From a bacterium (GTDB lineage Bacteria; UBA10199; 2-02-FULL-44-16; JAAZCA01): a stretch of 64,000 nucleotides of DNA. Below are positions 42,535-57,958 of the stretch, piece after piece (the stretch's first letter is position 1; the number at the start of each line of letters is the position of its first letter). Made by a program: the position numbers and the translations under genes. The notes beneath the pieces are model-generated. The model did no database searches. It was not told the DNA's origin and saw only the letters and a program-made list of their open reading frames with translations. The stretch covers positions 480,001 to 544,000 of the forward strand of contig CAXXGI010000001.1 in assembly GCA_963674695.2 (NCBI GenBank), in the 5' to 3' direction.

Positions 42535-42578
42535 CGGCTCACCCCCATGAAACCGTTAACATCAGCATAACTCTATAC

Positions 42579-42594
42579 AGCAACAAGCGTGCCA
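42579..42594 (-). promoter_or_regulatory. sigma54 (-24/-12) promoter
   Basis: Minus strand TGGCACG-CTTG-TTGCT, a perfect consensus 45 nt upstream of the 42534 start. Confidence 0.75.
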
Positions 42595-42866: not shown

Positions 42867-45854
42867 CTAGTTAAGATCGCCCATGTCGACGGGGATGGGC
42901 GGAGGAATGCCCGGACTCATCTGCTGAGAAAAATCGATCACCTGTTTCACATAGGCATAGCTCAGCCCGCCGGGATACGAACGGCCTGGAAGCGTAAAGA
43001 CATCGGCATCATATTCAAGATCAATCGTTCGCAAGCTGCGACCATCTCGCAGGAAGGAAAAGGTATCACCCGAATAGGCAATACGCCATTCATCCGGGCA
43101 CATCACGGCGCGGTCATCCTTTCCATCGCCATCAAAATCTGCCGCCATCGGATGACACTTACCCCCGCCATAGACGTTGTCCGGAGGAAGGAACGTAAAC
43201 GAAGCAAAATAATCGCTGACAAACGCCACGCTCCACTTTTCAGATGTATTATCCTTGATCGCCGGAGCGCTCCAAGAGCTGTCAGGATCAAAACGACCAG
43301 GAACCGGAATCGCTTCATTCCCGCCATAGATTGGGTTCGCATACTCCATGATATTAAATGTTCCATTTGGATATGTCAGCCCTACCATTGTCCCTTCATC
43401 GACCAAACCATCCGGATATTTATAACTGAAATACGGAGAATGTTCTGTCATATTCGAATAGTCATGGCCAAAGGCGAGATATGCCCAACCGGGGGCCTGC
43501 GCCAACTCTTCATCGGACAGATATTCGAATTCAAATTCATATCCCGAAAAATTGCTTTCGTCCGTACCACCATAATCGACGCGCCATATGCCATCGGAGC
43601 AGGCAATGGCGATGTCCATAAAACCATCTTCATCGTAATCACCCAACGCTGGGCGGCTGTAGTTGGAGCAGTTCGGACCTGTACGTGTGGTGCAGGAGAG
43701 CGGGTCGAGTTTGAGGTCATCGACCCATTGGGCGCTGTAGTCGAGTTCCCAGTCCCAGCCGTGCCACTCGTTACGGCGCAGGATATCGACATCGGTGAAG
43801 GCGATATAAAAGGTGCCGTGTTCCTTGTCGTAGACCACGAAGTCGCTGCGACCGTCGGCGTTCACATCTTCCACATAGGGCCAGACCCAGCGTCCGTCGA
43901 TGGGATCGTGTGCGATCTCGACATCCCAACTGCCAAACCCATCAGCCGCCTCGCCGATGGACGAGAGGTCGAGCTTCCAGGTGCCGTTGGTCCACTGCAC
44001 GAGGTCAGCACGCCCATCGCCGTCGAAGTCGTAGTGATCGGCAAAGCCGGTCTGCGGCGTGAAGAGCTCTTCGTCCGGACAGATCGGATCGGAGTTCACA
44101 AGATCACCCTCTTTGCAGATGATGCCGATGCCCGCCTGGCGCAGGGCGATCATGCGCTCTTCGGTGAGGATCTCGCCGGAATCGAGCTCGGGATATTCGG
44201 CGCGCATCTGGGCGAGAAAGGTATCGACCGCTGTCATCGCCACATCGATGCGCGGCTGCGTGCCGATGTTGCAGCCCGCATCGGTCTGATTGACCCCCGA
44301 GCCAACGATGATCTCGCGCATCTTGGGCGGCATGAGGTAGCGCTTGTAACCGAGGTCATTGCGCGCATAGCTCTGCACGAGCACCGCCGCACCGCCGACG
44401 ATGGCCGCCGCCGACGAGGTGCCGCCGAAGTTATCGATGAAGTAGCTGTTGATCTCGTCGTTGGGCGGGATCGGTCCCTGCGTGCCGTTCCAGGCATAGA
44501 GACCGTATTCATACCCCGTGGTCACAACGCCCTGCCCCCAGGAGAAACTATTCACGCGGGAACCGCAGTTGGAAAACGAGATCTTCGATTCATTCGCGCC
44601 TTCGCTCGCGCCGACGAGAATGGAACCTGAGTCTTCCACCGACAGATCTTTTGCAAAGGCCCACTCTTCACCGCTGTAGAGTTCGGGGTTATCAAAATCC
44701 ATTGAACCATTGGCAGCGGCGGAAATGACCGTCACACCGTAGGCCGTGGCCTGCTCAATCGCCGCAAAGTCCTCAGGCCACAGCTCGCGCGGCATACATC
44801 CATACTGATCGCTCGCATACACACCGGAACAACCGTCAGCAAACTTCCCCGGGAGCTGCATCTCGATCACCCAGATGGATCCAGGTTCGAGGTCGTCGTC
44901 TAAAATGGTATTTGGATCATCTATGCCGTCCGTCGACGAATTGATCAGACCATATGATCCACCCGACTCATGCAACAAAAACGCATCCGGCGCAAAGCCC
45001 GTGACGCCATGACCGTTATTGAGCGCCACCATCACGCCCGCCACGGCTGTGCCGTGTGCAATGGCCGATTCACAGTTGGGAATCTGTGGTTCAAAGCCCG
45101 GCGCGCAGTCCGGATAGAGGAAAAAGTTTCCGCCCTCGCTATGCCGAGTAGCGATGAGACCCAGGTCCTCGTGGTCGAAGTTCATGCCGTGTTCATTGTC
45201 GACGACGGTCACACCTTCGCCCGTCGCCCCCGCGTTCCAGGCGGCGTGGGCGTTCAACCCCCCGTGTGTCGATTCGGGAAAGAGATATCCCTGCAGGCCG
45301 TCGAGCGCAGGGGTTGCGGCCAGCCCCGAAGGCGAGCCCTGCATGCCGGGATAGACCTTGGTCACGCCCTCCATGCCGCGCAGCTCGTTCAAGAGCGCGA
45401 TGGCGTCCTCGGCGCTGTTCGTCTCGATGTGATAGATGGAATTCCAATCGGTGAGCTGCTTGCCCGAGAGCCGCTCGAGCTTGGCGCGCCGCGCGTCGAC
45501 GATATCGGCGTCGGCTTCAACCGTGCGCACGATGCGCGATTCCGGAAAACGCTTGATCGCGTTTTCAACCGAGGCGATGAGCGCCGCTTTGTTCGTGGAG
45601 GTGGTGAGGGCTTTGGATTCGTTCATGCGCACCGCGAGCGCGTCGTCGAAGTGGACGACCAGATGACCCGCGTAGGCATCGGACTGAATGAGCGCCGCCA
45701 TCGTCGTGTGCTCGCCCGCACCCACGTCCGGTTCCGGAGCACTTTCTGGTGAAGGATTACTTCCGCCACCGCAGGATGCGGATGCGATCATCATCGCCAT
45801 CGCACATGCCAGCAGCGCGGACCGTGTTCCCGTCACATCGGTCAGATGTGTCAT
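42867..45854 (-). CDS. S8 serine protease lipoprotein with FG-GAP/VCBS-like repeats, paralog 2
   Basis: Same triad and repeats as 7953..10931 with long near-identical stretches. Confidence 0.85.
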   Translation of the reverse strand: MTHLTDVTGTRSALLACAMAMMIASASCGGGSNPSPESAPEPDVGAGEHTTMAALIQSDAYAGHLVVHFDDALAVRMNESKALTTSTNKAALIASVENAIKRFPESRIVRTVEADADIVDARRAKLERLSGKQLTDWNSIYHIETNSAEDAIALLNELRGMEGVTKVYPGMQGSPSGLAATPALDGLQGYLFPESTHGGLNAHAAWNAGATGEGVTVVDNEHGMNFDHEDLGLIATRHSEGGNFFLYPDCAPGFEPQIPNCESAIAHGTAVAGVMVALNNGHGVTGFAPDAFLLHESGGSYGLINSSTDGIDDPNTILDDDLEPGSIWVIEMQLPGKFADGCSGVYASDQYGCMPRELWPEDFAAIEQATAYGVTVISAAANGSMDFDNPELYSGEEWAFAKDLSVEDSGSILVGASEGANESKISFSNCGSRVNSFSWGQGVVTTGYEYGLYAWNGTQGPIPPNDEINSYFIDNFGGTSSAAAIVGGAAVLVQSYARNDLGYKRYLMPPKMREIIVGSGVNQTDAGCNIGTQPRIDVAMTAVDTFLAQMRAEYPELDSGEILTEERMIALRQAGIGIICKEGDLVNSDPICPDEELFTPQTGFADHYDFDGDGRADLVQWTNGTWKLDLSSIGEAADGFGSWDVEIAHDPIDGRWVWPYVEDVNADGRSDFVVYDKEHGTFYIAFTDVDILRRNEWHGWDWELDYSAQWVDDLKLDPLSCTTRTGPNCSNYSRPALGDYDEDGFMDIAIACSDGIWRVDYGGTDESNFSGYEFEFEYLSDEELAQAPGWAYLAFGHDYSNMTEHSPYFSYKYPDGLVDEGTMVGLTYPNGTFNIMEYANPIYGGNEAIPVPGRFDPDSSWSAPAIKDNTSEKWSVAFVSDYFASFTFLPPDNVYGGGKCHPMAADFDGDGKDDRAVMCPDEWRIAYSGDTFSFLRDGRSLRTIDLEYDADVFTLPGRSYPGGLSYAYVKQVIDFSQQMSPGIPPPIPVDMGDLN

Positions 45855-46079
45855 GGGACCCCCCTTCAAAAAATCCGCTTGCTTTTTGCACTATTAGCAC
45901 CCATGTCGCACCGCGGCAAGAGTTTTCCACAGGCTGGGCACCTCCCCTTTTCGCGAGTTTTTTCAAAAAGTTGCGTAGTTTTTGGGGGGAAGTGGGGGTT
46001 GACGGGCGTTATCAGGCAACACAACGTCTTATTCATTGAAATATAAGGAGATATTACAGGCATCGCCGATAACAGCTGT

Positions 46080-47840
46080 CTACGAAAAGAGGCGGTTGAC
46101 GCGCTTTTCATCGATCGGCTTGGGGATGACTGAATCGGCACCGGCGGCTTTGGCGCGGCGTTGGATCTCTTCATCGTCATAGAAGCCCGTGCAGAGGTGA
46201 ACGCTGCGCACGCCCTTGGCCTTGAGATAGGCCACGAGGTCGACGCCGTTGAGGGTGAAGCCTTCGTAGTTGTAGTCAACGATCGCGGTATCGACCCGAG
46301 CATAATCGATATCGCTGCGCGCCTGGACCTCTTCCGCACTTCCGGCGGAACAAACGATGGAACCTCCCTGGGCATCGACGATCCGTTCCCAGTTGCGACG
46401 AACGTCGGCATCGTCATCGGCGATGAGGACGTTCATATGACTGACGTTGATGCTCACCACATCGGCGGTCGTTCTCACGCGATCATCGGCCACCCGATCC
46501 GTGACGACGCAATTCGGAATCCGAATCGTGAACGTCGTGCCCTTGCCCACCTCACTCTCGACAGTGATCGTGCCACCATGCGCCTCGACCACCTGTTTGC
46601 AGTACGCAAGACCAAGTCCGGTGCCGTGTTGTTTGTCGGTGGTGAAGAACTGGTCGAAGATCTTGAGCAGGTTTTCAGGTGAAATTCCACAGCCGGTGTC
46701 AGTGACGGTTATCGACAGCCCCATACTCTCTCGAGTGACATTTACACGCACATCACCACTCGTCCCCCTGATAGCCTTGACCGCATTGCCCATAATATTC
46801 ACCAGGACACGTCCGATTCGGTAGGCATCAAGGCTGGCCGCTTCCAGGCCATCAGCAATGTGACACACAATCCTGACCCCACGATTGCTCACCTTTCGCC
46901 GCACCTCTTCAACCGCCTCATTCAGAACTGTGCGCACATTGACATTGAGTCGCTCGATACGTGAGGCCTTTGAATAATCGACTAATTCATCGGCCATCAG
47001 CTTGAGCTTTTCCACACTTCGACCTGCGGCGGAAGACAAAGCCTGCATGTCCTCATCATCACCTTCATATTTCCTGCAATCAATAAAGGTCTTCAGCACA
47101 GACAGTGGCGAGCGGATATCGTGGGCAATGTGGGAGGACATTTTGCCCATTTCAAAGAAACGTCTATTATCATACGCCTTCTTCGTCAGCATTCGTTCTC
47201 GGTCAATAATTTCAAGCACAGCGATCATTACTTCCTGAATTCTTTTTGACCGAATTTTTCTCGAAAGTGTAATCACTCGCTGTTGCGCAATTCCATCTTC
47301 AGAACATTGCGACAACAACCCAATCATTCGAGACAGATTATATGTATATATGAATAGAGGAAGTTGACCCGCAGCTATAAGCACCGCAACAAGAACCATA
47401 ACAACAACTAGAAGCAAGCTATATTGCCGTAGCGTAGCAGCAATAAAACCCCAACGATCTATCAACACACTAATATTTGCATACTCATGTCCATATGCGC
47501 GAATGACATAGTTATGCTTACGAATAGAACGCTTAGCAGAAGTTTCAGCTGGATATATATTTCCGGCTATCACAGGGGCTAACATTGAATCACCCACACG
47601 CAATTCAACAGCATCGATTCGTGAAGATTTGATTATTTTCAGAAGAGTAACAAGCCTTTCACTATCACTCGCCTTTATGGCATCGACAAACTCATCATTC
47701 AACGTCTCAACCTTAACGCTGGTAGCATCTAATACGCTCTTCTTCTCCAAATGCACAATCACCCCACTTGCTATGACGGTTACCATGAGAGCAAGGAGAG
47801 CTACAGTAACACTGCATACTATGATCTGCCTTCTATTCAT
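46080..47840 (-). CDS. Hybrid sensor histidine kinase (2 TM, HisKA, HATPase, receiver)
   Basis: IAHDIRSPL, NIMGNAVKA, DTGCGI, FFTT..GTGLGL; receiver VLIADDD..IVDY..PKP. Confidence 0.92.
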   Translation of the reverse strand: MNRRQIIVCSVTVALLALMVTVIASGVIVHLEKKSVLDATSVKVETLNDEFVDAIKASDSERLVTLLKIIKSSRIDAVELRVGDSMLAPVIAGNIYPAETSAKRSIRKHNYVIRAYGHEYANISVLIDRWGFIAATLRQYSLLLVVVMVLVAVLIAAGQLPLFIYTYNLSRMIGLLSQCSEDGIAQQRVITLSRKIRSKRIQEVMIAVLEIIDRERMLTKKAYDNRRFFEMGKMSSHIAHDIRSPLSVLKTFIDCRKYEGDDEDMQALSSAAGRSVEKLKLMADELVDYSKASRIERLNVNVRTVLNEAVEEVRRKVSNRGVRIVCHIADGLEAASLDAYRIGRVLVNIMGNAVKAIRGTSGDVRVNVTRESMGLSITVTDTGCGISPENLLKIFDQFFTTDKQHGTGLGLAYCKQVVEAHGGTITVESEVGKGTTFTIRIPNCVVTDRVADDRVRTTADVVSINVSHMNVLIADDDADVRRNWERIVDAQGGSIVCSAGSAEEVQARSDIDYARVDTAIVDYNYEGFTLNGVDLVAYLKAKGVRSVHLCTGFYDDEEIQRRAKAAGADSVIPKPIDEKRVNRLFS

Positions 47841-49228
47841 TGGATATTCTTTATATCAATGTACCCCAGCATGAGATCATCTGAGCTGATATTCTTTATT
47901 CTTTTCGAAATCAGGATTTCACTTTCAACTTGAAATAATGGAATCAGCTGATAATTATCAAGTAACGCTTTATTGGCGCTCCTAAATAATGTCTCTTTTT
48001 TATCTACATCCATTTCTCGCATTGCGGCTGCAATAATAGCTTCATAACGATCATTTTCGATTGTTGTGCATGTAGCATTGTTATCTCTCATGAACATGTT
48101 GAATATATACATCGGGTCAGATAGAACGGCATCAACGCCAAGCAAGACGGAGCCGTAGTTTTTTTCTGGAGAACGGAGATGCTTCTCAAATTCATACATA
48201 TCGACATGTTTAACTGTTACACTCAATCCGGTCGTCCGAGAAAATTTATCGAAATATTGTTTCAACTCGCGAATTTTGTCCGCATAAAGCGTTATCAAGG
48301 TAATCTCTGTTTTTCCTTCATATTTCCTTGCGGGGCACACTTGTTCTATTCGCCCACCAATTGCCCCTGATATTCCAACTGGGAGAACTCCCCCGACATC
48401 ACGATACACTTCCTTTCTTGGAAAAAAGAGTGTGCGCAATTTATCCACATCAGCGCAATTATAAAATACCTTTCTCGCCTCAATGTCTGGCGTATTAAGA
48501 AGAATGATATAGTTTTTCATGATCAAGACATTATATGCGTTCATTTTGTCACTCAGATTTACATCTTTATTATCCTGAGCGACAAATGTTATATCATCAT
48601 AATCATGAAGGGGCTTACCTAATCCAGGACTCCACTTTTCAAAAATAACCGTTCTATACCGAACATTGTCATTGGATTTCAAAACAATACTTTGCTCATC
48701 GAAACTTTCCACATGATATGGAGAGATACCAATCACCACTCTCGAATTAAATGTTTCTGGATCAGCAATGGCAGCTTCATATGACGATAGCTCACCAAGC
48801 AATGAGTGGTAAGGGTTCTGATATTCTATGATGACACATCTTCCACTTATTGCCTTTTTGTGAATTCCATTCGTAAGAACTCTTCTTTCGAACGCACGCT
48901 GTAGATTTGCTATAACATCAGATGCAGTAACCTCCTTTTCGTTGGAGAATTTCACTCCTTCCCTTACGCAAAAACTAAACCGTTTGAAGTCGTTGCTAAC
49001 ACTCCATTCCTTCAGGATATTTGATCCATATGTGTATTTGGTTTTTTTGTAGAATAAGGGTTCATGCAATTGTTTTAATATGTACAATTTATAATTTGCA
49101 TTCGCGTCAAGGGGATCAAGTACGGCTGGATAAAATGTCATAGCGGCTCTAAATACATTGCCACCCGTATTGCACGATGCAATCACGGCGATCATTGCGA
49201 TGACGATGGCTCTTTTTATTATTTCCAC
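47837..49228 (-). CDS. Family-5 (peptide/nickel-type) solute-binding lipoprotein, no permease nearby
   Basis: Lipobox-like IASC; LDP, WSVSND..F..REGVKFSN..VTASDV, C-terminal LIPLF; stop overlaps the kinase start. Confidence 0.75.
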   Translation of the reverse strand: MEIIKRAIVIAMIAVIASCNTGGNVFRAAMTFYPAVLDPLDANANYKLYILKQLHEPLFYKKTKYTYGSNILKEWSVSNDFKRFSFCVREGVKFSNEKEVTASDVIANLQRAFERRVLTNGIHKKAISGRCVIIEYQNPYHSLLGELSSYEAAIADPETFNSRVVIGISPYHVESFDEQSIVLKSNDNVRYRTVIFEKWSPGLGKPLHDYDDITFVAQDNKDVNLSDKMNAYNVLIMKNYIILLNTPDIEARKVFYNCADVDKLRTLFFPRKEVYRDVGGVLPVGISGAIGGRIEQVCPARKYEGKTEITLITLYADKIRELKQYFDKFSRTTGLSVTVKHVDMYEFEKHLRSPEKNYGSVLLGVDAVLSDPMYIFNMFMRDNNATCTTIENDRYEAIIAAAMREMDVDKKETLFRSANKALLDNYQLIPLFQVESEILISKRIKNISSDDLMLGYIDIKNIQ

Positions 49229-49995
49229 TTAGACATCCTTACAAAAAATGGTTGAAAGCCGTTGTTCATAAAATAACGCAATGACAACTTATGAACAGCA
49301 TTGATACCGACAAAGAATGGTGGCTTATGTTCTGCCATTACCCTGGCAACTGACAAGGCAGCGCTATGATGTACAGCATTTTGCACGCGATCTGACAGCC
49401 ATATATAGGTTATAAGATTGTATTTTTCGAGATACTTATATGCCTGCATTTTCATAACACCGACATAACCCACAAGCTCATCGGCGTACATGACGAAACA
49501 ATGATCGATATCCTTTGCTGTTGGCTCAAAGATATCCATCACCGCTTTGTTGATTTCTTCGTATCCCTTTATCATGTAGCGCCTATCATTACCTAGCTTA
49601 CGGAGAAATTCTCTGCCCAGCTCACTTGAATATTCCGTGATGCATTTGACAGCAACAGACTCTCCATTGGTGTCCGCAACCTCAATGCCTGAATGCTTGA
49701 GACACATGATCTTGTTCACAGTGTGATCATCGTCTCGAAATAATGCCGAAACATTTGGAATTGGTTTGTTAAACTTGAGATTCACATCAATCCCATCACG
49801 ACGTTGCATAGATCTGAAGTCATCAACAATGCCACCGTTCAGCACGAAGTCTTGATCAAGGCAATACGCATCAATTGATGCGCCTGTATTTGTCCATACT
49901 AGTGGAGCATCAAAATGAATTGAACTTTCATTGATGCTGTTCATAAACGAATGAACAAATGATGACCCAATATTACCCACATGATAGTTCATCAT
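49219..49995 (-). CDS. Hypothetical protein with GNAT-like C-terminal fold
   Basis: LVGYVGV..ITYIWLS..SLRYFMNNGF pattern; RBS aaggag. Confidence 0.55.
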   Translation of the reverse strand: MMNYHVGNIGSSFVHSFMNSINESSIHFDAPLVWTNTGASIDAYCLDQDFVLNGGIVDDFRSMQRRDGIDVNLKFNKPIPNVSALFRDDDHTVNKIMCLKHSGIEVADTNGESVAVKCITEYSSELGREFLRKLGNDRRYMIKGYEEINKAVMDIFEPTAKDIDHCFVMYADELVGYVGVMKMQAYKYLEKYNLITYIWLSDRVQNAVHHSAALSVARVMAEHKPPFFVGINAVHKLSLRYFMNNGFQPFFVRMSKWK

Positions 49996-50016
49996 ACTAA
50001 AAACTCCTTCACCTTA

Positions 50017-50050
50017 GGAGCCTCCTTTCGCGTGATTGAAAGGAGGCTCC
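50017..50050 (-). other. Strong stem-loop after the small peptide gene
   Basis: ggagcctcctttc-(8 nt)-gaaaggaggctcc, 13-bp perfect stem; no U-tract on the minus strand. Confidence 0.65.
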
Positions 50051-50081
50051 CTTGCGTTTTGACGACAACAGCGGTCGCCAT

Positions 50082-50165
50082 TCAGCAATACCCATAATTA
50101 CAAACTATTTTTGGTTTTACTCGTTTTACCTTAGTTTCTTTTGCCTTCTTTTCCTCTTTTTTCAT
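50082..50165 (-). CDS. Putative RiPP precursor peptide, 27 aa: MKKEEKKAKETKVKRVKPKIVCNYGYC (absent from the ORF track)
   Basis: Hand-translated ATG 50165 to TGA 50082; GGGAGG RBS; 20 nt after the B12 radical SAM stop; charged leader and Cys/Tyr tail. Confidence 0.8.
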   Translation of the reverse strand: MKKEEKKAKETKVKRVKPKIVCNYGYC

Positions 50166-50185
50166 GACGCCTCCCTTGTTGGTGG

Positions 50186-51871
50186 TTAACTGTATATTTC
50201 TATGTAATCATTTTTTTTCGTAATGGTAATCGTTCTCTCTTTAGGATATTTTAGCACATCCCTCATCTCGATAAATCTATCTACATCGTAAGCACATTTC
50301 ATTGCTATAGAATCATCTATGCAAGATTGAGATAGTTTGCCAATTGCCATTTCATATCCAAAGACATCGTCTATAATGCTGCTTTTTGTCGTATAAAGGG
50401 TAAGTGTATCTGTCATTATTTTCCACATATCAGTGCACTTAAATTCATGTAGCATATCCTCATTACCGTCATGCATAGTCCTCACAATATCCAATACTTT
50501 TACACCCCCCACCGACGTAATAGATGAGATGGTAAATGGATAATATTCCACGAGATGAGCAAGGACATTCCTTACGGTCCTCAACGGAACACCATTTACA
50601 GATCTCCGGCAAATCGCATTGAATGAATACAGCCTTCTTTGGTCCCGCATTGCAACTCCTGCGGAATATTTTGTACTATCATCCACACGCATATTATAGG
50701 TCGATAGCATCTCGTCAAATGCCGCCGTATTGGGATATGGATCAAGCATTGACACTTGAATATTCCCCACCCCCTCGTGTTTCATATCAATTATACGGGC
50801 TATATCAGCTTCAATGTCATCATCCGATTGACTCGGTAGCCCAATTATAAAATTCCCTGCTACTTCGATGTCATTTTCCACACAATCTTTAATCAACTCG
50901 CGCACCTTCTCATAATCATACACCTTACCAACACCCCTCTGCACCTCCGATGACATCGTTTCAAAACCAATAAACACTTTAGTGCAGCCCGCCTGCGAAA
51001 GAATCGAGGGCAGGCCCTCCTCATAGTCATCAACTCTCATATAGCATTCCCACTGAATGGCCAGACTCGATTCTCGAATTTGATTACATAGATCAAACAC
51101 CCTTTTCCTATCAAAAAGAAACTGGTCGTGAGTAAAGCGATATCGTCTAATGCCTCTTCCGTAGAGCGTACGAATATCGCTCATGACTTTATCAATGGAG
51201 CAGTATCTACTTTTATTTCGCCAAAATGATGAAGATGCGCAGAAGGAGCATTTCCCAGAACACCCACGACCCGACTCAACCCAGCACACCTCATTAAACA
51301 ATGGCGACTGTATATACCGTTCAATATCAACATATTTATAATCAATGGGAGGCAATTCAGCCAAATCCAGCAACCGCTCATCTGTACTACTAACGACAAA
51401 TCCAGCCCTCCTATATGTCAATGAATTCACCCCGGCAAAAAAAAGCTTGTTCTTCATTAGATTGTAAACAACATCACACAACACCTTCTCCCCTTCTCCC
51501 CTTACAACGGCATCAACAAATGGCATATTATTAATTATCTCTAAGTGGTTTGCAGTTGCATGTATCCCACCGAGCATAACGATTGAATTAGCTGATATTT
51601 CTTTCGCCCGCTGTGCAATACTAAAAGCCTTTTGTATGTTCCTATAATGGACCGTTATACCAACCACATCATAGATTTCGGAGCCCAATCGTTTACAAAG
51701 CACATCCTCATTGTCCTCAACAGCCAAGTCCACTACCTGGATATTCACTTCAGGCATTCTTCTCGCAAGATAACTTGCAAGCGTAAGAAGACTTAAAGGA
51801 AAATCGATATTCTTCTCAACCATCTCGTGGTCGACAATGCCTGGATTTATGAGTAGAATATTCATCGACAT
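50186..51871 (-). CDS. Cobalamin-dependent radical SAM protein
   Basis: B12-binding N-terminus (PLSLLTLASYL, DVVGIT, LGGIHAT, VVRGEGE); SGRGCSGKCSFC; IGFET; FIIGLP. Confidence 0.9.
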   Translation of the reverse strand: MSMNILLINPGIVDHEMVEKNIDFPLSLLTLASYLARRMPEVNIQVVDLAVEDNEDVLCKRLGSEIYDVVGITVHYRNIQKAFSIAQRAKEISANSIVMLGGIHATANHLEIINNMPFVDAVVRGEGEKVLCDVVYNLMKNKLFFAGVNSLTYRRAGFVVSSTDERLLDLAELPPIDYKYVDIERYIQSPLFNEVCWVESGRGCSGKCSFCASSSFWRNKSRYCSIDKVMSDIRTLYGRGIRRYRFTHDQFLFDRKRVFDLCNQIRESSLAIQWECYMRVDDYEEGLPSILSQAGCTKVFIGFETMSSEVQRGVGKVYDYEKVRELIKDCVENDIEVAGNFIIGLPSQSDDDIEADIARIIDMKHEGVGNIQVSMLDPYPNTAAFDEMLSTYNMRVDDSTKYSAGVAMRDQRRLYSFNAICRRSVNGVPLRTVRNVLAHLVEYYPFTISSITSVGGVKVLDIVRTMHDGNEDMLHEFKCTDMWKIMTDTLTLYTTKSSIIDDVFGYEMAIGKLSQSCIDDSIAMKCAYDVDRFIEMRDVLKYPKERTITITKKNDYIEIYS

Positions 51872-51910
51872 TTATAGCCCATCCTGATTCTTGGCCTTAT
51901 GCAACCATCC

Positions 51911-53071
51911 CTACCCTTGGTCCTCCACCCTTCGGGCGCGGCTCCACAGCTGCGGAGTATAAAATATACCTGAAAGTATGATGGTGGCACCTACGAAGAG
52001 CCAGATGAAGAGTGGCTTCAGTGTCGCATAGGTGTTGGCCTTGGCGATGAAGACGCTGGTGAGCAGACCGAACTGCATGAAGAGCTGTCTCAGAATGAAG
52101 GCGTTGGTGCGCTGCGTTTCGCCCTTCTCTTCTTGAAAGATGCTCGTCTGGGCAAGGTTGATCAGACCGATCGATGCGCCGATGAAGAAATTGAGCACGA
52201 AGAGCCAGCCAAACTGCGGGATCAGTAGGAATACCGCATGCGTCGCAAAACAGAGAATGCATGCCATGAGAAAGATCACGGCGGATCCCCGTTTGATCCA
52301 ATCGACGCGCACGATCCCCATCGCGATAAACATCGCGCCCAAACCAACACTGTAAAAGAGGGATATCTGATAGGAACTGGCCTGGAATTGATCCATGAGG
52401 TAGGGCACTTCGATCACATTGAAGATGCCAGCAACGATGAAGACGAGGAAGGTTCCAACGAGCGTCTTAAGGGAGGGAAGGCTTGGCCACTCAAACCGCG
52501 TACGCGCTTCAAGCATTCCCTTTGCGCACGACTGTGCCTCGGCTTTCCTCAGCCCAAGCACACCCAGGAGCAAGAACAAAGAGAACCCGCCATCGATGAG
52601 GAGAATTCCGCGAAAACCCAGCGCGGTGGCCACAACAGGCCCAACAATAAATCCCGTCATGATCGCCGCCATGCCACCGATCTGCACGCGCTTATTGAGC
52701 GTGATCTTATTGTCCCCCGCAATGATGGGAACGAGCGTCAAAATCCGCGCGAAGAGCCATGTGCCGGCGAAATTGCGAACCAGAAAACAGATCTTCCACA
52801 CCATCGTCTCTGGATTGATGAAGGCGATACTCACCGACATGACAAGCCCCAGGACAACCAACGCAACATTGAGTGAACGCGCCTTGAATACCTTCATCTG
52901 CGCACACCCGAGCGCAATGAGCGCTCCCAGCGCCTGAATGAGCACGATCATACTCGTGCCCGCGATGCCTCCGAAATCGAGGGCCGCGGAAACGGTGGCG
53001 CCAAGCGTGATAAACCCAGTGGCGAGACGAAGAAGAAAGAAGCTGACGATGAGGACCCAAGCTGCTGACAC
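51911..53071 (-). CDS. MFS transporter (probable exporter)
   Basis: About 12 hydrophobic segments in two halves, GPVVA/IDG motif; GTG start with aaggag RBS. Confidence 0.75.
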   Translation of the reverse strand: MSAAWVLIVSFFLLRLATGFITLGATVSAALDFGGIAGTSMIVLIQALGALIALGCAQMKVFKARSLNVALVVLGLVMSVSIAFINPETMVWKICFLVRNFAGTWLFARILTLVPIIAGDNKITLNKRVQIGGMAAIMTGFIVGPVVATALGFRGILLIDGGFSLFLLLGVLGLRKAEAQSCAKGMLEARTRFEWPSLPSLKTLVGTFLVFIVAGIFNVIEVPYLMDQFQASSYQISLFYSVGLGAMFIAMGIVRVDWIKRGSAVIFLMACILCFATHAVFLLIPQFGWLFVLNFFIGASIGLINLAQTSIFQEEKGETQRTNAFILRQLFMQFGLLTSVFIAKANTYATLKPLFIWLFVGATIILSGIFYTPQLWSRARRVEDQG

Positions 53072-53201
53072 GATATGATCTCCTTCGTGATGTGGAAAAC
53101 GGAGACAGCTTTCATCACTATCGTCATTCCGGAAAAAAAGTTACGTGGTTTTTTATCAAAAATGTCACTTCGTTTTTGACATGACGATTGGGGATTGAAT
53201 A

Positions 53202-53217
53202 AGCAAAATGCGGGCCA
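53202..53217 (-). promoter_or_regulatory. sigma54 promoter of the MFS-radical SAM-peptide-SBP-kinase unit
   Basis: Minus strand TGGCCCG-CATT-TTGCT; IHF-like TATCAATATATTA at 53246-53258; inverted repeat further upstream. Confidence 0.65.
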
Positions 53218-53357
53218 AAAGTGGCGAACATGATATGATGAGTGATATCAATATATTATAAATTTCACCCCTACTAAAGTCCGGATTTCCGAACACGGGC
53301 ATGTTCGATTTTCCGGATTCCGTGTTCGGCAAGTGGGACAGAAAATCCCAGCGCCGA

Positions 53358-53603
53358 TCACATGCCAGCAATCCGTTCCACTACCTGATCACAAAACCGA
53401 CCGGTGTTGCAGACACAGCGGGGCAGGTTCCCACCGATGTGCTCCTTCACATCGACGAAGCGCGATGCAGTGATCGACTTCCATCCCACGTCAAAGGGAC
53501 TGCGCCACAAGACCTGCTTCGGCAAAGAGATCCACTCCGCCTTTCGGATGGACTGGGCAACGGTCGTTACCGATGCCTCCGTCTTTCTGTTGTTGCCGCT
53601 CAT
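53358..53603 (-). CDS. Putative RiPP precursor B (81 aa; KAEWISLP leader, CVCNTGRFC)
   Basis: Follows the S41 stop; shares NR, KxEWIxxP and CxCN[ST]G motifs with 55254..55523. Confidence 0.65.
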   Translation of the reverse strand: MSGNNRKTEASVTTVAQSIRKAEWISLPKQVLWRSPFDVGWKSITASRFVDVKEHIGGNLPRCVCNTGRFCDQVVERIAGM

Positions 53604-53619
53604 CTTCCCCACGCGCCCC

Positions 53620-55215
53620 TCACAAACCCAGATCGTTCAACACGGCACGCACATCCGGGTCGTGCTGCAGTAGGACAGTCCGCGCCTCGTCCTCGTCCGA
53701 AACCATGTCGGCGCCGATGCGTTCGCACCGCTGGCGCCAATCGCCGATCGACCAACTCGTTCGGATATCCGGAGTCGTTCGCATCTCCTCGCTCATCGAC
53801 CCATCCGGCGACATACCCATGTCGAACGGATAACGGATCAGCATGAGGCTGTTGGGCAATACCGTCATCGACGGATCGAATCCAATCCCGTCGCCGCCCG
53901 TCTGTTCGCCCACCAGGACCGCCCAGCCAGTTGCCTTCGCCCAGGCCGCCAATGCCTCCGACGAGGAATACACATATCGATCGACCAACAGATAGATCTT
54001 CGGCCCATAGCGAACCGCGCGTTCGGGATCCGCCCTATACTCGAACGCATAGACATGATCGACGACGCCACCGAGCACCTCGGAAGGCATTTCCATCAGA
54101 TAGTTTTGACGATCGACGCGCTCCAACCCATAGCGATCGACCAGCTCATCCTCGTATCCGCCGTCATACTCGCCACTGCGAATCCCTACAAAGAAGGTCG
54201 CCTGTAACCGCTCATGGAGAGTGGGAGAGACCAGCCCCTCCCGCCAATAGCGCGTGCTGCCCCCTCCGTTTCCCCGAATGTCGATGATGATGGCCCGCGC
54301 GTCCTCATGCGCATCGAGAAAATCAGCGAGGATATCGAAATCCAACTCTTCGCGTTCCGAGGAGAAGGTGTTGAGCTTGATATATCCAACCTCGTTCGAC
54401 ACCAGATCGACGGTCGTTCCGTGATCCAGCCATCCGACATGCTCGAAACAGGGCACAACCTCCTCCATGGCATCCGCTGTGAACCGGAGCGAACGAGTCG
54501 GATTCTTCAGTTGAATCGACAGCTCATCCCCTTCATCGAACATGCGAAACAGTCCCCACGAGATGACCCCACCGGTTTGCAGATCGCGCTGAAGATACAT
54601 CTGATCGCGATAGCGACGGATGTGCTCGTCCACCGCAAGGTCATCGATCGAAGCGACTTCAGCACCGATGGAAAGCTCTGTTCCGTCCGGAAGACGGAGA
54701 CTCGACCCAAGATAGTAGCGACCGTTGAGATAATGCGTGTAGACGCGCGGATGCGACCACCCCGCCCGCGACCCAACCTCATCCCAAAACGCCGCCGCGG
54801 GGAGCGCCTTTTGGGCCGCCTCCCGCAACGGCCGTTTGGCGCTCTCGGTCGCATAGAACTGCGCCGTATCCTGCCCGACAATTCCGCTGTGCAAATTGTG
54901 CAGTTTCCAGAGGATGCTGCGAACAGCACGATAATACGCTTCAGGCGTTTTGGCCTGGGACATCATCTTCTTGAAGGCCAACTTCTCGCTTCTCCAGTCC
55001 ACATAGCCCAGGCGGCGTTTCTGCCAGAAATACGGATAGTGTGTATTAATCACGCGAAAGAGATGCTCGAAATCCTCCTCGCGCTGCTGCGGGGTGAGAA
55101 ACGTTTCGTCGAAACGTACTTCGGCACTCGTTGCATATGCAGGTTCACCACAAAAAACGACAAGCAGCGTCACCATCGAAACGATCATCACTCGCAATAC
55201 GCACAAGCTCCGCAT
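53620..55215 (-). CDS. S41 family peptidase (secreted)
   Basis: Signal peptide; EEDFEHL..YPYF; GYIKLNTF; IIIDIRGNGGGS; YSSSE; VGEQTGG. Confidence 0.88.
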   Translation of the reverse strand: MRSLCVLRVMIVSMVTLLVVFCGEPAYATSAEVRFDETFLTPQQREEDFEHLFRVINTHYPYFWQKRRLGYVDWRSEKLAFKKMMSQAKTPEAYYRAVRSILWKLHNLHSGIVGQDTAQFYATESAKRPLREAAQKALPAAAFWDEVGSRAGWSHPRVYTHYLNGRYYLGSSLRLPDGTELSIGAEVASIDDLAVDEHIRRYRDQMYLQRDLQTGGVISWGLFRMFDEGDELSIQLKNPTRSLRFTADAMEEVVPCFEHVGWLDHGTTVDLVSNEVGYIKLNTFSSEREELDFDILADFLDAHEDARAIIIDIRGNGGGSTRYWREGLVSPTLHERLQATFFVGIRSGEYDGGYEDELVDRYGLERVDRQNYLMEMPSEVLGGVVDHVYAFEYRADPERAVRYGPKIYLLVDRYVYSSSEALAAWAKATGWAVLVGEQTGGDGIGFDPSMTVLPNSLMLIRYPFDMGMSPDGSMSEEMRTTPDIRTSWSIGDWRQRCERIGADMVSDEDEARTVLLQHDPDVRAVLNDLGL

Positions 55216-55253
55216 CTTTCTGCTCCGTTCAGAAATCGTTCTCAACAAACCAG

Positions 55254-55523
55254 CTAACACCACTCATGCTTCGTGCATGGCACCTTGTTGGTACAGGAAC
55301 AATGCGCGCTCACACAGAAACAGTCGCTGTCGCCACTGTTGCACGTGCATTTTTTCTTACAGGATTTTGCGATGGCTTTTCCACACAAATCGTCGTTATC
55401 GCCCATCCGGAAGATGGTTTCATCATAGTGACTATCCTTCATTGGCATCGCAATCCATTCCACCTTCTGCTGCTTCTTCTCCTCCACCCGCTGACCACCA
55501 TAGATTCTGTTCACACTCACCAT
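55254..55523 (-). CDS. Putative Cys-rich RiPP precursor A (89 aa, 10 Cys, three CxC motifs)
   Basis: AGGAGG RBS before MVSVNR; Cys-free first half, Cys-rich second half; directly after the radical SAM/SPASM gene. Confidence 0.8.
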   Translation of the reverse strand: MVSVNRIYGGQRVEEKKQQKVEWIAMPMKDSHYDETIFRMGDNDDLCGKAIAKSCKKKCTCNSGDSDCFCVSAHCSCTNKVPCTKHEWC

Positions 55524-55579
55524 TGGTTCCTCCTTTGTTGGCATTGCGAAAAACAATGCATGTCATTTCAATGTTGAAT

Positions 55580-56950
55580 TCATGATGCCGCACAGCACTC
55601 CGCGGATTTCGCATGCCGCTTCAGAGCATGCGTCAATTTCAACTCTTCGATGAGGTTGTACTTCACCCGAAGGCACGACTCCGCATTACGATCATCCTTC
55701 ACCTTGTCCGGGCACCATCCCATACAGAGCGGAAGAACCTTGCATGAACGGCACTTTCGAAATTGTAGAGCATCAAAATTGATCCATTTGAGATATATAT
55801 CGTTGATCCGCACCCCTTCGTGAATGGTGCCTATCTGCTCGCTCTCCACCCCGATCGTTTCACTACACTTATAGAGATCCCCTCGGGCATCGATGACGAG
55901 GCTATTGGGAAAGGTCGCCCCGCAACTGGAACAGGTTGGCCCATGAGCCGGCTCGATGCGAAAACCCATATCGTGCGTCATCATCTTGAGCTGTGATTCC
56001 AATCGAGCGAATTCCTTCTGCGAATAGATCGCCCGACACCCCTGTCCTGCATCTGCACAGCATTCAGCCCCATTGTGAACCGGGCTATAGTAGAGCCGAA
56101 TGTACTTCGCGATGCCGCGACCATGCAGGATCTCGGCCAAATCTCGCACAAAACGAATATTGTCCTTATCGACATTACACCGCACCGACACATTCACAAT
56201 ACGGCAGACGTCTTCGATGTTTTTCAGGATTCGATTGAACGTACCCTTTCCACTGACATAAGGGCGACGTCGATCATGAATCTTCGGAGGCCCATCAAGT
56301 GTTACCTGCACGGCGTTCACCTTCAATCGCGCAAGGTCTCGAGCCACGCTTTTGGTCAGGAGGGTCCCATTAGTAATCATGCAAGCGGAATAATGTGCGC
56401 CGTGCCGGCGACAGAGGTTCATAATACGCGATGACAGCGCTTTGATCATGGGAACACAGATGAGCGGCTCCCCGCCAAACCACTCGATTGCAACATCCTT
56501 GCATCCATTTTTGAGCCGCGCGCGAATGACATCGACAATTTTGTCCTGAACTGCCTTTGACATCACGACATTCGCCTTGTTGTGCTCAAAACAATATGAA
56601 CAGTTCATATTGCATTTGTTCGTGGGAATAATGACCAGCGACAATGATCGATCCGACATGCTCCGCACCTGCTGCGCTTGATATCGAATATACTCGATTT
56701 CATCGATGTCAGATGGAATCACAAAACCGCCATCCTGGAGAGCCTGACGAACATCGGCATCCATTCCGGCAGGAGGTCCATTGCGCGAGGCACTCTGCAA
56801 CAACCATCGATAATCAGAGCAGCGCGTATCCGTGAGGCGCAGAAAAGCACCCGTTCTCGTGTTATACAGGAGCAGATCGTTGCCTTCCTTGTAGCCAACA
56901 TTGAACCTCGAGTTCTTATACGCCTGTTGCGCATCACATCGTTTCCGCAT
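55580..56950 (-). CDS. Radical SAM/SPASM peptide maturase
   Basis: SRFN..LLYNTRTG RRE-like N-terminus; PTNKCNMNCSYCFE; WFGGEPL; SPASM CGA..GDLYKC..CRSCKVLPLCMGWCP..C; start MRKRC with ggagg RBS. Confidence 0.92.
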   Translation of the reverse strand: MRKRCDAQQAYKNSRFNVGYKEGNDLLLYNTRTGAFLRLTDTRCSDYRWLLQSASRNGPPAGMDADVRQALQDGGFVIPSDIDEIEYIRYQAQQVRSMSDRSLSLVIIPTNKCNMNCSYCFEHNKANVVMSKAVQDKIVDVIRARLKNGCKDVAIEWFGGEPLICVPMIKALSSRIMNLCRRHGAHYSACMITNGTLLTKSVARDLARLKVNAVQVTLDGPPKIHDRRRPYVSGKGTFNRILKNIEDVCRIVNVSVRCNVDKDNIRFVRDLAEILHGRGIAKYIRLYYSPVHNGAECCADAGQGCRAIYSQKEFARLESQLKMMTHDMGFRIEPAHGPTCSSCGATFPNSLVIDARGDLYKCSETIGVESEQIGTIHEGVRINDIYLKWINFDALQFRKCRSCKVLPLCMGWCPDKVKDDRNAESCLRVKYNLIEELKLTHALKRHAKSAECCAAS

Positions 56951-57301
56951 ATCGCCTCCCTGATGATTCTTGTGATTGACACCACATCGGGACTGCACAA
57001 AACGGGCCAACGCCCGAGCATGCGAAATCATTTCAGTTTTTTTGCTGACGGAACGGCGTGTTCGGATTTGATGCACTCAGATTGCAACAAATGTTCAGAA
57101 TGCTGAACATGTGAATTCCGCGATGGAGTGGGGATGACAATCGATCAACCGAAAACAACACACTTCTTTTCACTCCACCACATAGAACGTATCGACGCGG
57201 CGAGGATTAGAAGTACTCCAGAGAAACCGTCACACCATCACACGTGAATGATGAGCGGGTATTGGGGACGAAGGTCGACGGTTCGGTTCAGCGTGCGCAG
57301 T

Positions 57302-57335
57302 GAAAAGGAGCGTTCCTTGCGATAACGCGCTCCTT
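57302..57335 (-). terminator. Possible terminator after the coiled-coil gene
   Basis: aaggagcg...cgctcctt stem with a short T run on the minus strand. Confidence 0.4.
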
Positions 57336-57958
57336 CACTGAAACTGCGCCTTGAGGCTCACGATGTCGCCATGATTTTGGGTGAGCATCGCTTCTACGCG
57401 CGCAAGCCGAGCATCATGACCTTCGATGGTATGACCATTGCTTTCAATCGCTTGGCGGTTACCTTCGATGGCTTGGCGATTACCTTCAATGGCTTGGCGA
57501 TTGACCTCGATCGCCTTGCGGTTTTCTTCAATGGCTTGACGATTGACCTCGATCGCCTTGCGGTTTTCTTCGATGGCTTGGCGATTGACCTCGATCGCCT
57601 TGCGGTTTTCTTCGATGGCTTGGCGATTGACCTCGATCGCCTTGCGGTTTTCTTCGATGGCTTGGCGATTGACCTCGATCGCCTTGCGGTTTTCTTCGAT
57701 GGCCTTGCGGTTCTTGATAATCTCTTCGCGGTTGGACTTGATCGCCTGCCGATTGAGCATGATCTCGCGGAGCAGATCCTCGCGCAGGCCAGCGATATCA
57801 CCCTTGACCTCCTGACGCAGGGCATTCATCCCCTCCACCAGCAGATCCATCTTCTCTTGAAAGGCCTCGAAGATCACATTCACGTACGACTCCTCCGTTC
57901 CCACCTCAATCGTCCTGCTCCGCTTTTTCGCGTTCATCCTTCTCTCCTCCATAGCCAT
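57335..57958 (-). CDS. Coiled-coil protein with tandem heptad repeats (AIEENRK/AIEVNRQ)
   Basis: About 15 consecutive IxxNRxA-type heptads. Confidence 0.75.
   Translation of the reverse strand: MAMEERRMNAKKRSRTIEVGTEESYVNVIFEAFQEKMDLLVEGMNALRQEVKGDIAGLREDLLREIMLNRQAIKSNREEIIKNRKAIEENRKAIEVNRQAIEENRKAIEVNRQAIEENRKAIEVNRQAIEENRKAIEVNRQAIEENRKAIEVNRQAIEGNRQAIEGNRQAIESNGHTIEGHDARLARVEAMLTQNHGDIVSLKAQFQ
57437..57722. repeat. Intragenic tandem repeat, 21-bp unit organised as a 42-bp dimer
   Basis: gcggttttcttcgatggcttggcgattgacctcgatcgcctt repeated about four times near-perfectly, with degenerate flanks. Confidence 0.9.

Follow-up and report, generated by a model that had tools for sequence, protein, structure and literature searches.

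How might a double-membraned bacterium make a peptide and then sense it? In a 64,000-nucleotide stretch of genome from an uncultured bacterium of the phylum UBA10199 (assembly GCA_963674695.2, contig CAXXGI010000001.1, positions 480,001 to 544,000 of the forward strand; hereafter the window), six tightly packed reading frames lie on the minus strand between positions 46080 and 53217. In order they encode a transporter of the major facilitator superfamily (MFS), a B12-binding radical S-adenosylmethionine enzyme (B12-rSAM), a 27-codon open reading frame (ORF), a 258-residue protein, a solute-binding protein (SBP) of the family SBP_bac_5 and a hybrid histidine kinase. The layout combines two known kinds of system, peptide autoinduction and binding-protein-dependent kinases, and looks like an undescribed peptide signalling system. 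We regard it as somewhat probable that the locus both makes and perceives a modified mini-peptide as a self-contained cassette, and that an NtrC-type activator mediates autoinduction. Its features, from the promoter downstream, are as follows.

53275..53330, minus strand: candidate upstream activator site (UAS) at which a regulator may bind, formed by the inverted pair CCGAACACG ... CGTGTTCGG at a distance of 72-127 nt upstream from the sigma54 box.

53202..53217, minus strand: sigma54-type -24/-12 element TGGCCCGCATTTTGCT, one mismatch to TGGCAC-N5-TTGCW, GG and GC being retained; the MFS gene starts 131 nt downstream.

51911..53071, minus strand: MFS transporter, 386 residues, candidate exporter; PF07690 at 43.6 bits, many hydrophobic segments.

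50186..51871, minus strand: B12-binding (class B) radical SAM enzyme, 561 residues; PF02310 (48.7 bits) and PF04055 (63.9 bits) exceed their cut-offs.

50082..50165, minus strand: 27-codon ORF MKKEEKKAKETKVKRVKPKIVCNYGYC, candidate precursor; its ATG lies 6 nt behind the Shine-Dalgarno sequence AAGGGAGG, and the ORF starts 20 nt after the rSAM stop codon.

50017..50050, minus strand: 14-bp perfect hairpin with no U-tract on this strand; -37.1 kcal/mol, z -4.08, 0 of 200 shuffles as stable.

49219..49995, minus strand: 258-residue protein with a predicted tandem GNAT fold, candidate acyl or aminoacyl transferase; AlphaFold2 model and fold searches.

47837..49228, minus strand: orphan SBP_bac_5 lipoprotein, 463 residues, candidate periplasmic ligand-binding co-receptor; PF00496 at 57.7 bits against 32.4.

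46080..47840, minus strand: hybrid histidine kinase, 586 residues, with a first transmembrane (TM) helix, a loop of about 110 residues, a second TM helix, HisKA, HATPase_c and REC; PF00512, PF02518 and PF00072 above cut-off.

The original prediction had these six genes co-oriented behind a sigma54-type box. This is borne out by the positions of the ORFs, by matches in Pfam and NCBIfam, which support four of the six proteins (MFS, rSAM, SBP_bac_5 and kinase), and, for the 258-residue protein, by a predicted structure, which also justifies the earlier label 'GNAT-like' for a protein that matches none of the Pfam and NCBIfam families. The overlaps described there amount to 10 nt between the 258-residue protein's gene and the SBP gene and to 4 nt between the SBP stop and the kinase start, and no permease or ATPase lies beside the SBP, as had been claimed: all six BPD_transp_1 matches of the genome are on other contigs. 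The six reading frames are all intact, and the catalytic motifs are retained (CxxxCxxC in the rSAM; H-box, N and G boxes in the kinase). In an independent short-read assembly, one contig of 11,749 bases spans 45770-55500 without any difference, and contigs from two further runs bridge both GC boundaries of the locus; the runs behind this check may include the sample from which this genome came. The low-GC core of the locus is bounded by real junctions and is not an assembly artefact.

The central evidence is the recurrence of the sensor pair. Across the comparison set of 93 species genomes of the phylum, all in one class, an SBP is followed directly by a hybrid kinase in 11 loci from seven genomes and six families: the window (genome G000), L037, L038, L049 and L141 (G014), L051 and L160 (G033), L052 (G002), L140 (G058), L142 (G026) and L143 (G055). 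The kinase gene starts between 35 nt of overlap and 100 nt behind the SBP gene in every one of them, this order and tight spacing being kept over genomes of 33-59% GC, and a permease stands beside the kinase-linked SBP in none of the 11 assessable loci. The ordinary context of SBP_bac_5 proteins in the same phylum is seen in nine Opp-type loci, with permeases in L042, L050, L053-L057 and L059 and an ATPase only in L058. The pairing also has predictive value, as a profile built from seven kinase-linked SBPs returned four new matches (343-405 bits), followed by a gap down to 247 bits, and all four adjoin a kinase. The SBP of L160 is kinase-linked at only 209 bits, and the list of loci is therefore not complete; in an eighth genome (G004), the closest SBP relative (35% identity) lies on a contig of 1,426 bases without context. 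Outside the phylum, none of 12 weak SBP relatives has an adjacent kinase, and among 80 metagenome loci of distant rSAM relatives (25-31% identity) none carries an SBP, a kinase or a homologue of the GNAT-fold protein in its flanks. The cassette family is so far confined to this small phylum of uncultured, double-membraned bacteria. Within it, the layout recurs in relatives, so that the synteny search, which had been set as a test able to refute the proposal, fails to do so. As far as gene order can speak to it, the view that the SBP belongs to the kinase and not to an importer is now backed by comparison.

Around this constant pair the remaining genes are exchanged. A B12-rSAM gene lies just upstream of it in five of the 11 loci (window, L037, L038, L141 and L160), and four loci are headed by an exporter, which is of the MFS type in the window, L141 and L049 and of the MATE type in L037. 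Wherever else a tailoring gene is present, a SAM-dependent methyltransferase takes the position that the GNAT-fold enzyme has here; the sequence of L143 does not extend far enough for a judgement on tailoring genes. Like the tailoring genes (GNAT fold or methyltransferases), the sequences of the SBP and of the kinase loop vary between cassettes.

What would such an SBP bind? The window protein belongs to SBP_bac_5 by a match that covers only profile positions 5-155 of 368 of PF00496, and its N-terminal hydrophobic segment ends in ...VIASC, which we read as the lipobox of a lipoprotein signal. When a profile of the kinase-linked SBPs is compared with the PDB, peptide binders come first and align over their full length (DppE, OppA, AapF, GsiB, DppA, PrgZ and MppA). 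The other two SBP_bac_5 genes of the genome each lie beside a permease pair, and the window contig has no BPD_transp_1 match; with permeases at none of the 11 kinase-linked loci, the window SBP does not have the setting of an ABC-importer subunit, and its use of a distant permease is a conceivable rather than an indicated arrangement. The kinase, in turn, has the conserved residues of a hybrid kinase, H240, N348 and the G boxes being invariant in nine aligned kinases. Two TM helices and a periplasmic loop of 110-145 residues are found in all six SBP-linked kinases tested (the window and five of the ten relatives); a paralogous kinase of the same genome that has no SBP has about eight TM segments. 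No Pfam domain, LuxQ-periplasm (PF09308) included, was found in kinase residues 30-140. A complex prediction for SBP residues 24-463 and kinase residues 30-140, with both partners entered as alignments, gave a score of 0.01 and a mark of 0.32, the fold of the partner being uncertain, and is given no weight on either side of the question of binding.

The production half of the cassette centres on the rSAM. Its CxxxCxxC motif (C204/C208/C211) is invariant across eight aligned relatives, which together with the domains listed above places it in class B. Its best NCBIfam match is ApyD (NF050148), at 147.9 bits against a cut-off of 750 and limited to the first 400 or so residues; the C-methyltransferase family TIGR03975 of peptides that are ribosomally synthesised and then modified after translation (RiPPs) ranks sixth, at 87.1 bits against a cut-off of 281.85, and the places between are taken by non-peptide enzymes (BchE, HpnJ and P-methyltransferases). 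The enzyme thus falls outside both families. Its C-terminal part of about 170 residues is nearly unique and is common to a single metagenomic protein, P0003. In a word-indexed search of 5.8 billion proteins, P0003 is also the only full-length relative among the matches listed (35% identity, 99% coverage); the next-best matches span about 70% of the query or less, and a handful of far weaker ones reach 94% at most. A search of the genome contigs with the pair of rSAM and P0003 gave no match.

Directly behind the rSAM gene stands the 27-codon ORF, with a Lys-rich N-terminal part and a CNYGYC tail (...KPKIVCNYGYC). No homologue of this peptide is known. The arrangement of a short precursor gene beside a modifying enzyme, as in RiPP clusters, is found here and again in L037, L038 and L141, and a RiPP recognition element was detected in none of the operon proteins by Pfam or NCBIfam. 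Thus four of the five rSAM-bearing cassettes have an ORF of 16-62 codons that is led by a Shine-Dalgarno sequence and starts 0-30 nt after the rSAM stop (MKLIEVVACEAEQPIA in L037, MEKVKEVKKGGATCGQDR in L141, and in L038 one ending in ...RIRLGSCNSRDYQM), and each of the four has a Cys 5-10 residues from its end. A strong hairpin follows the short ORF in three of these four (z -4.1 in the window, -5.0 in L037, -2.8 in L141), that of L038 being not significant; it may act in transcript stability or attenuation. On this pattern, the 27-codon ORF is likely a real gene, as had been proposed. A variant set of genes is seen in L043 (G002:C33:12000-23523), where a ThiF-like fragment, an MFS transporter, an SBP_bac_5 protein without evident signal peptide and a B12-rSAM are encoded on one strand and a kinase and a single receiver on the opposite strand; the cytoplasmic SBP-like protein could be a peptide-holding partner of the enzyme.

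The 258-residue protein is the least familiar member of the operon. A word-indexed search returned only the protein itself, and a search of the whole genome set found two relatives, a paralog at G000:C3:477204-477923 and one in a sister genus. A profile of these three retrieved 20 proteins at E values up to 1e-3, including 12 at 1e-10 or better, from 1.84 billion representatives. The family is rare, with 13 relatives of 258-283 residues at E below 1e-7 in that same set. An AlphaFold2 model built on the 13-member alignment (pLDDT 89.5, pTM 0.85) aligns by its residues from about 111 to 258 to many GNAT acetyltransferases (Z 9.3-10.3, root-mean-square deviation 2.8-4.4, 125-161 residues; Foldseek, VIA-align), and over its whole chain to tandem GNATs, namely VipF, 3frm, the C-terminal domain of MprF, N-myristoyltransferase and a clavulanate tandem GNAT. 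Six of the 13 family members match PF00583 weakly, and the look-alikes in the Atlas are GNATs; the predicted structure thus places the protein in the GNAT superfamily fold. In GNATs the pyrophosphate of acyl-CoA is held by a loop of the form Q/R-x-x-G-x-G/A after strand 4. Inspection of the 13-member alignment by eye revealed no such loop after the conserved 'IWI' strand, and the donor may therefore not be acyl-CoA; among the fold matches, the C-terminal domain of MprF is an aminoacyl-tRNA-dependent relative. Structures of acyl-homoserine lactone synthases were not among the matches listed by Foldseek and VIA-align. We also considered the methyltransferase of L160 as a relative of this family and ruled it out (hhalign probability 0.1). 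The paralog, of 269 residues, belongs to a mini-operon at G000:C3:474843-477923 (L017:7344-10439) that consists of a sigma54-like box, the 733-residue hybrid kinase with about eight TM segments and the GNAT-fold gene, without SBP, rSAM or short ORF.

How the cassette is controlled is suggested by the region upstream of the MFS gene. The sigma54-like box there would carry little weight by number, since matches with up to two mismatches are not above chance in the window (30, against 26.0 +/- 5.8 expected); its standing therefore rests on its position and on the relatives. The 127,222 bases of the ten related loci contain 12 boxes that differ from the consensus at one position or none, and seven of the 12 lie co-oriented upstream of the first cassette gene, at 61-171 nt in six cases and at 510 nt in L141, a box that is counted but weak, as it lies inside another ORF upstream of the MFS gene. 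With the window, boxes thus head eight of 11 loci. The genome encodes rpoN and has 14 matches to PF00158 (Sigma54_activat), none of them in the window. At the level of sequence, then, the element has what is expected of a sigma54 promoter, and the promoter of the original prediction is likely real. Within G014, the promoters L037:1-243 (G014:C35) and L049:1-243 (G014:C73) agree at 233 of 243 positions, sigma54 box included, ahead of a MATE gene in one and an MFS gene in the other, which suggests recent duplication or exchange of cassette heads.

Activators of the NtrC type (REC, Sigma54_activat, HTH_8) are encoded after the kinase in L038 and L049 and before the SBP in L052, and with three cassettes carrying their own activator a feedback loop is structurally plausible. 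For the window, the candidate is an orphan NtrC-type activator at G000:C3:933889-935259 (minus strand), which each of the three cassette activators matches best in this genome by a clear margin, at 45-46% identity and 366-409 bits (next match 250-280 bits). Judging from this resemblance, it is probably the partner of the window kinase. It adjoins a 1098-residue Ser/Thr-kinase-like gene (936878-940174), and similar kinases of about 1150 residues with TPR repeats flank L038 and L141. The histidine phosphotransfer (Hpt) domain PF01627 has no match in this genome, which is 100% complete (9 of 14 reference genomes matched as a control; a divergent Hpt could be missed), so that a multistep phosphorelay of the LuxQ-LuxU-LuxO type is not indicated.

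A protein may bind at the candidate UAS, whose inverted pair of CCGAACACG at 53289-53329 is the only such pair in the genome. The exact 9-mer occurs within 160 nt upstream of three of 557 sigma54-like boxes genome-wide (up to two mismatches, GG and GC kept). These are the box at 53202, a box at 56994-57009 of the window before the gene of a second radical SAM enzyme, of the SPASM type, and the box of the paralogous kinase/GNAT-fold operon on contig 3 (C3:474843); the latter two share the 15-mer CCGAACACGCCGTTC, and the upstream motif that the contig 3 operon has in common with the window's promoters reads CCGAACACG(CCGTTC). The motif was found by comparing the 53202 and contig 3 boxes, so that only the box at 56994 is an independent match.

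The base composition of the locus bears on its origin. The GC content is 0.41 in the rSAM gene, 0.30 in the short ORF, 0.41 in the GNAT-fold gene, 0.38 in the SBP gene and about 0.41 in the 5' half of the kinase gene, against 0.55 in the MFS gene, 0.58 in the gene of an adjacent S8 protease and 0.564 in the whole window; the core from the rSAM to the sensor half of the kinase thus lies at 38-41% in a genome of 56% GC. Along the kinase gene it climbs from about 0.41 to 0.60. The last 527 nt of this gene are 80% identical in DNA to the second hybrid kinase gene on contig 3, and residues 230-584 are 60% identical to that kinase (G000:C3:474898-477099). The loci of related cassettes have 33-39% GC. 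By these measures the core stands out as an island of deviating composition, joined to the tail of a resident kinase. The simplest reading is that a low-GC cassette was acquired from a relative and that its kinase has since taken on a tail of resident type, perhaps via recombination or gene conversion.

Taken together, the parts can be arranged into a circuit that is put forward as a proposal in all its biochemical steps, in what the ligand is and in its feedback. The sigma54 promoter with its UAS would drive MFS, B12-rSAM, precursor, tandem-GNAT, SBP and kinase genes as one transcript, in which the hairpin behind the precursor gene may raise the precursor's share of the message. The rSAM would alter the C-terminal core IVCNYGYC, C-methylation being the most likely chemistry, and the GNAT-fold enzyme would add an acyl or aminoacyl group. 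The MFS pump, taken to act as an exporter, would move the product out of the cytoplasm, and trimming of the Lys-rich leader may fall to a secreted protease, for which the adjacent S8 lipoprotein is a possible candidate. In the periplasm, the membrane-anchored SBP would bind the mature product and dock on the 110-residue loop of the kinase, which would signal to an activator of the NtrC type; relatives have its gene within the cassette, and here the gene is probably the unlinked one at G000:C3:933889-935259. By returning to the window promoter and to at least two others with the same site, the activator would close the loop of autoinduction. A wider scenario is possible, and we hold it more tentatively. 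It sees true peptide quorum sensing in this phylum by exchangeable 'pherotype' cassettes: each would have its own B12-rSAM-modified and further tailored mini-peptide and a matched receptor of lipoprotein SBP and hybrid kinase; NtrC-type activators and sigma54 promoters would switch on the cassette, a second rSAM peptide operon and secreted proteases or beta-helix proteins; and in passing from one lineage to another, the cassettes would join a new sensor half to the tail of a resident kinase.

Several observations weigh against a self-sensing peptide circuit. Six of the 11 SBP-kinase loci are without an rSAM, and four of these (L051, L052, L140 and L142) are also without a recognised tailoring enzyme, so that ligands of another kind or from outside also suit the sensor core; binding proteins of family SBP_bac_5 also bind nickel, opines, glutathione, haem and sugars, according to a review (PMC8050422). 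The four short ORFs cannot be aligned with each other, the fifth rSAM locus, L160, offers only a doubtful ORF of 65 codons that overlaps both neighbours, no convincing short ORF is seen in L049, which has MFS and methyltransferase genes and no rSAM, and translation and modification of the 27-codon ORF are suppositions. The GNAT-fold gene also pairs with a kinase where there is neither SBP nor rSAM, and may therefore serve the kinase rather than the peptide. The MFS gene has a native composition (GC 0.55, third-position GC 0.70), unlike the core. On the side of control, the mismatch of the sigma54 box falls at a well-conserved position (TGGCCC), and the 9-mer occurs 55 times in the genome, against about 34 expected, so that by estimate about 1.6 of the 557 boxes would have it by chance; the weight of this motif therefore lies in which three boxes carry it. 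Finally, the window operon encodes no response regulator, and with no Hpt domain in the genome the output path is thus a guess.

Read differently, these facts would fit the main rival, a system in which the SBP-kinase pair responds to something from outside the cell, for instance a nutrient or peptides that are foreign or derive from cell walls, and then switches on a modified peptide, perhaps an antimicrobial, together with the SPASM/Cys-rich-peptide operon and secreted proteins, with no sensing of self. We consider this rather unlikely. It would account for the sensor core that stands without production genes in L051, L052, L140 and L142, and for nearest solved SBP relatives that include the murein-peptide and oligopeptide binders MppA, DppE and OppA. 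The upstream motif that also marks the second peptide operon, and the sigma54 boxes before secreted beta-helix genes beside the cassette, here and in L160, fit a wider output regulon of this kind. However, here and in four relatives a single operon unites production genes with sensor genes, under translational coupling, and tailoring genes, SBP and kinase loops vary, as expected if each receptor matches its own product; moreover, the sensor genes lie behind the promoter that they would control, which gives feedback whatever the ligand.

That the ligand is not a ribosomal product at all appears improbable to us. The short ORFs would then be due to chance or be regulatory, and the rSAM, GNAT-fold or methyltransferase enzymes would build a small molecule, for instance an acylated or methylated amine or amino acid, which the SBP binds, as in LuxM/LuxN or CqsA/CqsS with an added binding protein. 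LuxM and LuxN are a synthase-receptor pair, to which the GNAT-fold paralog bears a likeness, as its only partner is a polytopic kinase and the upstream motif recurs at the sigma54 box of this operon; L049, with MFS, methyltransferase, SBP, kinase and activator, is just such a locus without rSAM or convincing short ORF, and neither the unalignable sequences of the four ORFs nor the lack of a RiPP recognition element in Pfam and NCBIfam matches speak for a peptide. Yet a strong Shine-Dalgarno sequence lies at the right spacing in all four clear cases, 0-30 nt after the rSAM stop and with strong hairpins in three of four, the SBP subfamily is of the peptide-binding type, and ApyD, the best NCBIfam match of the rSAM, modifies peptides. 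The sceptical extreme, in which the genes are adjacent without a shared function, the SBP feeding a distant ABC importer with an unrelated kinase beside it, or the island being a decaying foreign insert, seems very improbable. Orphan SBPs with distant permeases do exist, MppA with Opp among them, which a review gives as transporter-less (PMC8050422), the core is of foreign composition and the kinase is a mosaic. Against this stand the order and tight spacing of SBP and kinase, kept in 11 of 11 loci from six families, the two Opp/Dpp-type permease pairs of the genome, both of which already have an SBP of their own, and six intact frames with their catalytic motifs retained.

Is there a precedent for the sensing of a modified peptide by a binding protein and a kinase? 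A full-text literature search, with subscription journals mostly outside its scope, found no paper that describes a radical SAM peptide with an SBP-kinase receptor. The components have relatives in known systems, from which the window locus departs in different ways. The AI-2 pathway of Vibrio ends at a sigma54 activator, LuxO. As is proposed here, a periplasmic binding protein that does not serve transport is encoded beside a hybrid kinase as its ligand-binding subunit in LuxP-LuxQ, and likewise in TorT-TorS and AioX-AioS (PMC8050422). LuxP, however, is of the family Peripla_BP_4 and TorT of Peripla_BP_1, while the window SBP is of family 5, the peptide type; the latter matches PF00496, the kinase has no LuxQ-periplasm domain and the genome no Hpt, and the genes that would produce the ligand share the operon with the receptor genes, in contrast to those for AI-2. 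The only pair of SBP_bac_5 protein and sensor kinase in the review's table is CBP-ChiS of Vibrio cholerae, in which ChiS is a hybrid kinase and CBP, a binder of chitin oligosaccharides, has a second role with an ABC transporter ('Ta & SPa') (PMC8050422). The window locus differs from this pair in having no transporter, in its nearest solved relatives, which are peptide binders, and in its attached biosynthetic genes.

The peptide circuits of Gram-positive bacteria, agr (AgrBDCA), ComQXPA and nisin with NisK/NisR, unite precursor, modifying enzyme, export, a histidine-kinase receptor and feedback on the own promoter in one locus. The variable tailoring and receptor parts of the cassettes described here resemble their pherotypes. 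In those circuits, the kinases bind the peptide directly, by polytopic or extracellular domains and without a binding-protein subunit, the modifying enzymes are AgrB, ComQ and LanBC and not radical SAM enzymes, the promoters are of the sigma70 type and the cells single-membraned. Pfam and NCBIfam found no AgrB-like or ComQ-like protein among the six of the window, and its kinase has two TM helices. Among radical SAM enzymes, ApyD is reported to make beta-methyltyrosine in a ribosomal peptide (PMC10635010). Like the window rSAM, ApyD and the PoyC-type enzymes of TIGR03975 combine a B12-binding domain with a radical SAM core, and the core of the window peptide has two Tyr; the aminopyruvatide cluster of ApyD, however, has MNIO, P450 and a partner of the RiPP-recognition-element type, none of which is present at the window locus. 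A link between radical SAM peptides and quorum sensing is given by the streptococcal RaS-RiPPs, ribosomal peptides modified by radical SAM enzymes under SHP/Rgg quorum sensing (PMC13361665). There, the peptide that serves as signal (SHP) is not the one that the rSAM modifies, Opp brings the signal into the cell for the cytoplasmic regulator Rgg to sense, and no kinase, sigma54 or B12 enzyme is needed, unlike in the window layout.

Ribosomal peptide autoinducers that are sensed by membrane kinases are textbook knowledge for Gram-positives and close to unheard of in double-membraned bacteria, for which binding-protein-dependent kinases are known mainly with small molecules (AI-2, trimethylamine N-oxide, arsenite and chitobiose). 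If the proposed circuit is true, it would be a route of peptide signalling for cells of the Gram-negative type, would give a role in signalling to a B12-radical SAM enzyme and to a rare tandem-GNAT family, and would be a natural case of modular receptor exchange, with a sensor half of foreign origin joined to the tail of a native kinase. The system is compact, as it consists of six genes with a single promoter and a single candidate activator, and is thus directly testable in a heterologous host.

The genes on both sides of the cassette include possible accessory and output functions, and upstream of the MFS operon there is a second peptide operon (53620-57076):

42867..45869, minus strand: S8 subtilase / FG-GAP lipoprotein, 1000 residues, possible accessory (leader protease) or output gene; PF00082, PF13517.

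53620-55263, minus strand: S41 peptidase, second peptide operon, directly upstream of the MFS operon.

55254-55556, minus strand: ORF with the Cys-rich tail ...SCKKKCTCNSGDSDCFCVSAHCSCTNKVPCTKHEWC, second peptide operon.

55580-57076, minus strand: SPASM radical SAM maturase; TIGR04463 at 291.7 bits against 525, TIGR04280 ('geopeptide') at 242.9 against 400.

Full-length homologues of the S8 protein (31-36% identity) adjoin the cassettes L037, L038 and L160. Genes of this S8/FG-GAP type number about nine in G014 and two in G000, and since the family is multi-copy, its adjacency in four loci is suggestive only. The two copies of the window, at 7971-10910 and 42867-45869 on the minus strand, are 84% identical. 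The SPASM enzyme, by its score, lies outside the geopeptide maturase family TIGR04280; a Shine-Dalgarno sequence with an ATG 44 nt behind the 56994 box suggests that its start is really near 56950, and the second radical SAM peptide operon appears to share a regulator site with the window promoter.

Further towards the low end, a perfect sigma54 box, TGGCACGCTTGTTGCT (42579-42594, minus strand), lies 45 nt before the gene of a 529-residue secreted beta-helix protein (40945-42594 region), and in L160, too, a beta-helix gene preceded by a sigma54-like box adjoins the cassette. At the other end, 57335-57958 (minus strand) encodes a 207-residue protein that consists mostly of tandem repeats of the type NRKAIEENRKAIEVNRQAIEE and looks like a coiled coil, with a mirror ORF on the opposite strand. 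It is followed at 58122-63974 (minus strand) by an ORF of 1950 residues with many YD/RHS-type repeats and a distinct C-terminal part, whose GC content of about 0.65 lies above that of the rest of the window.

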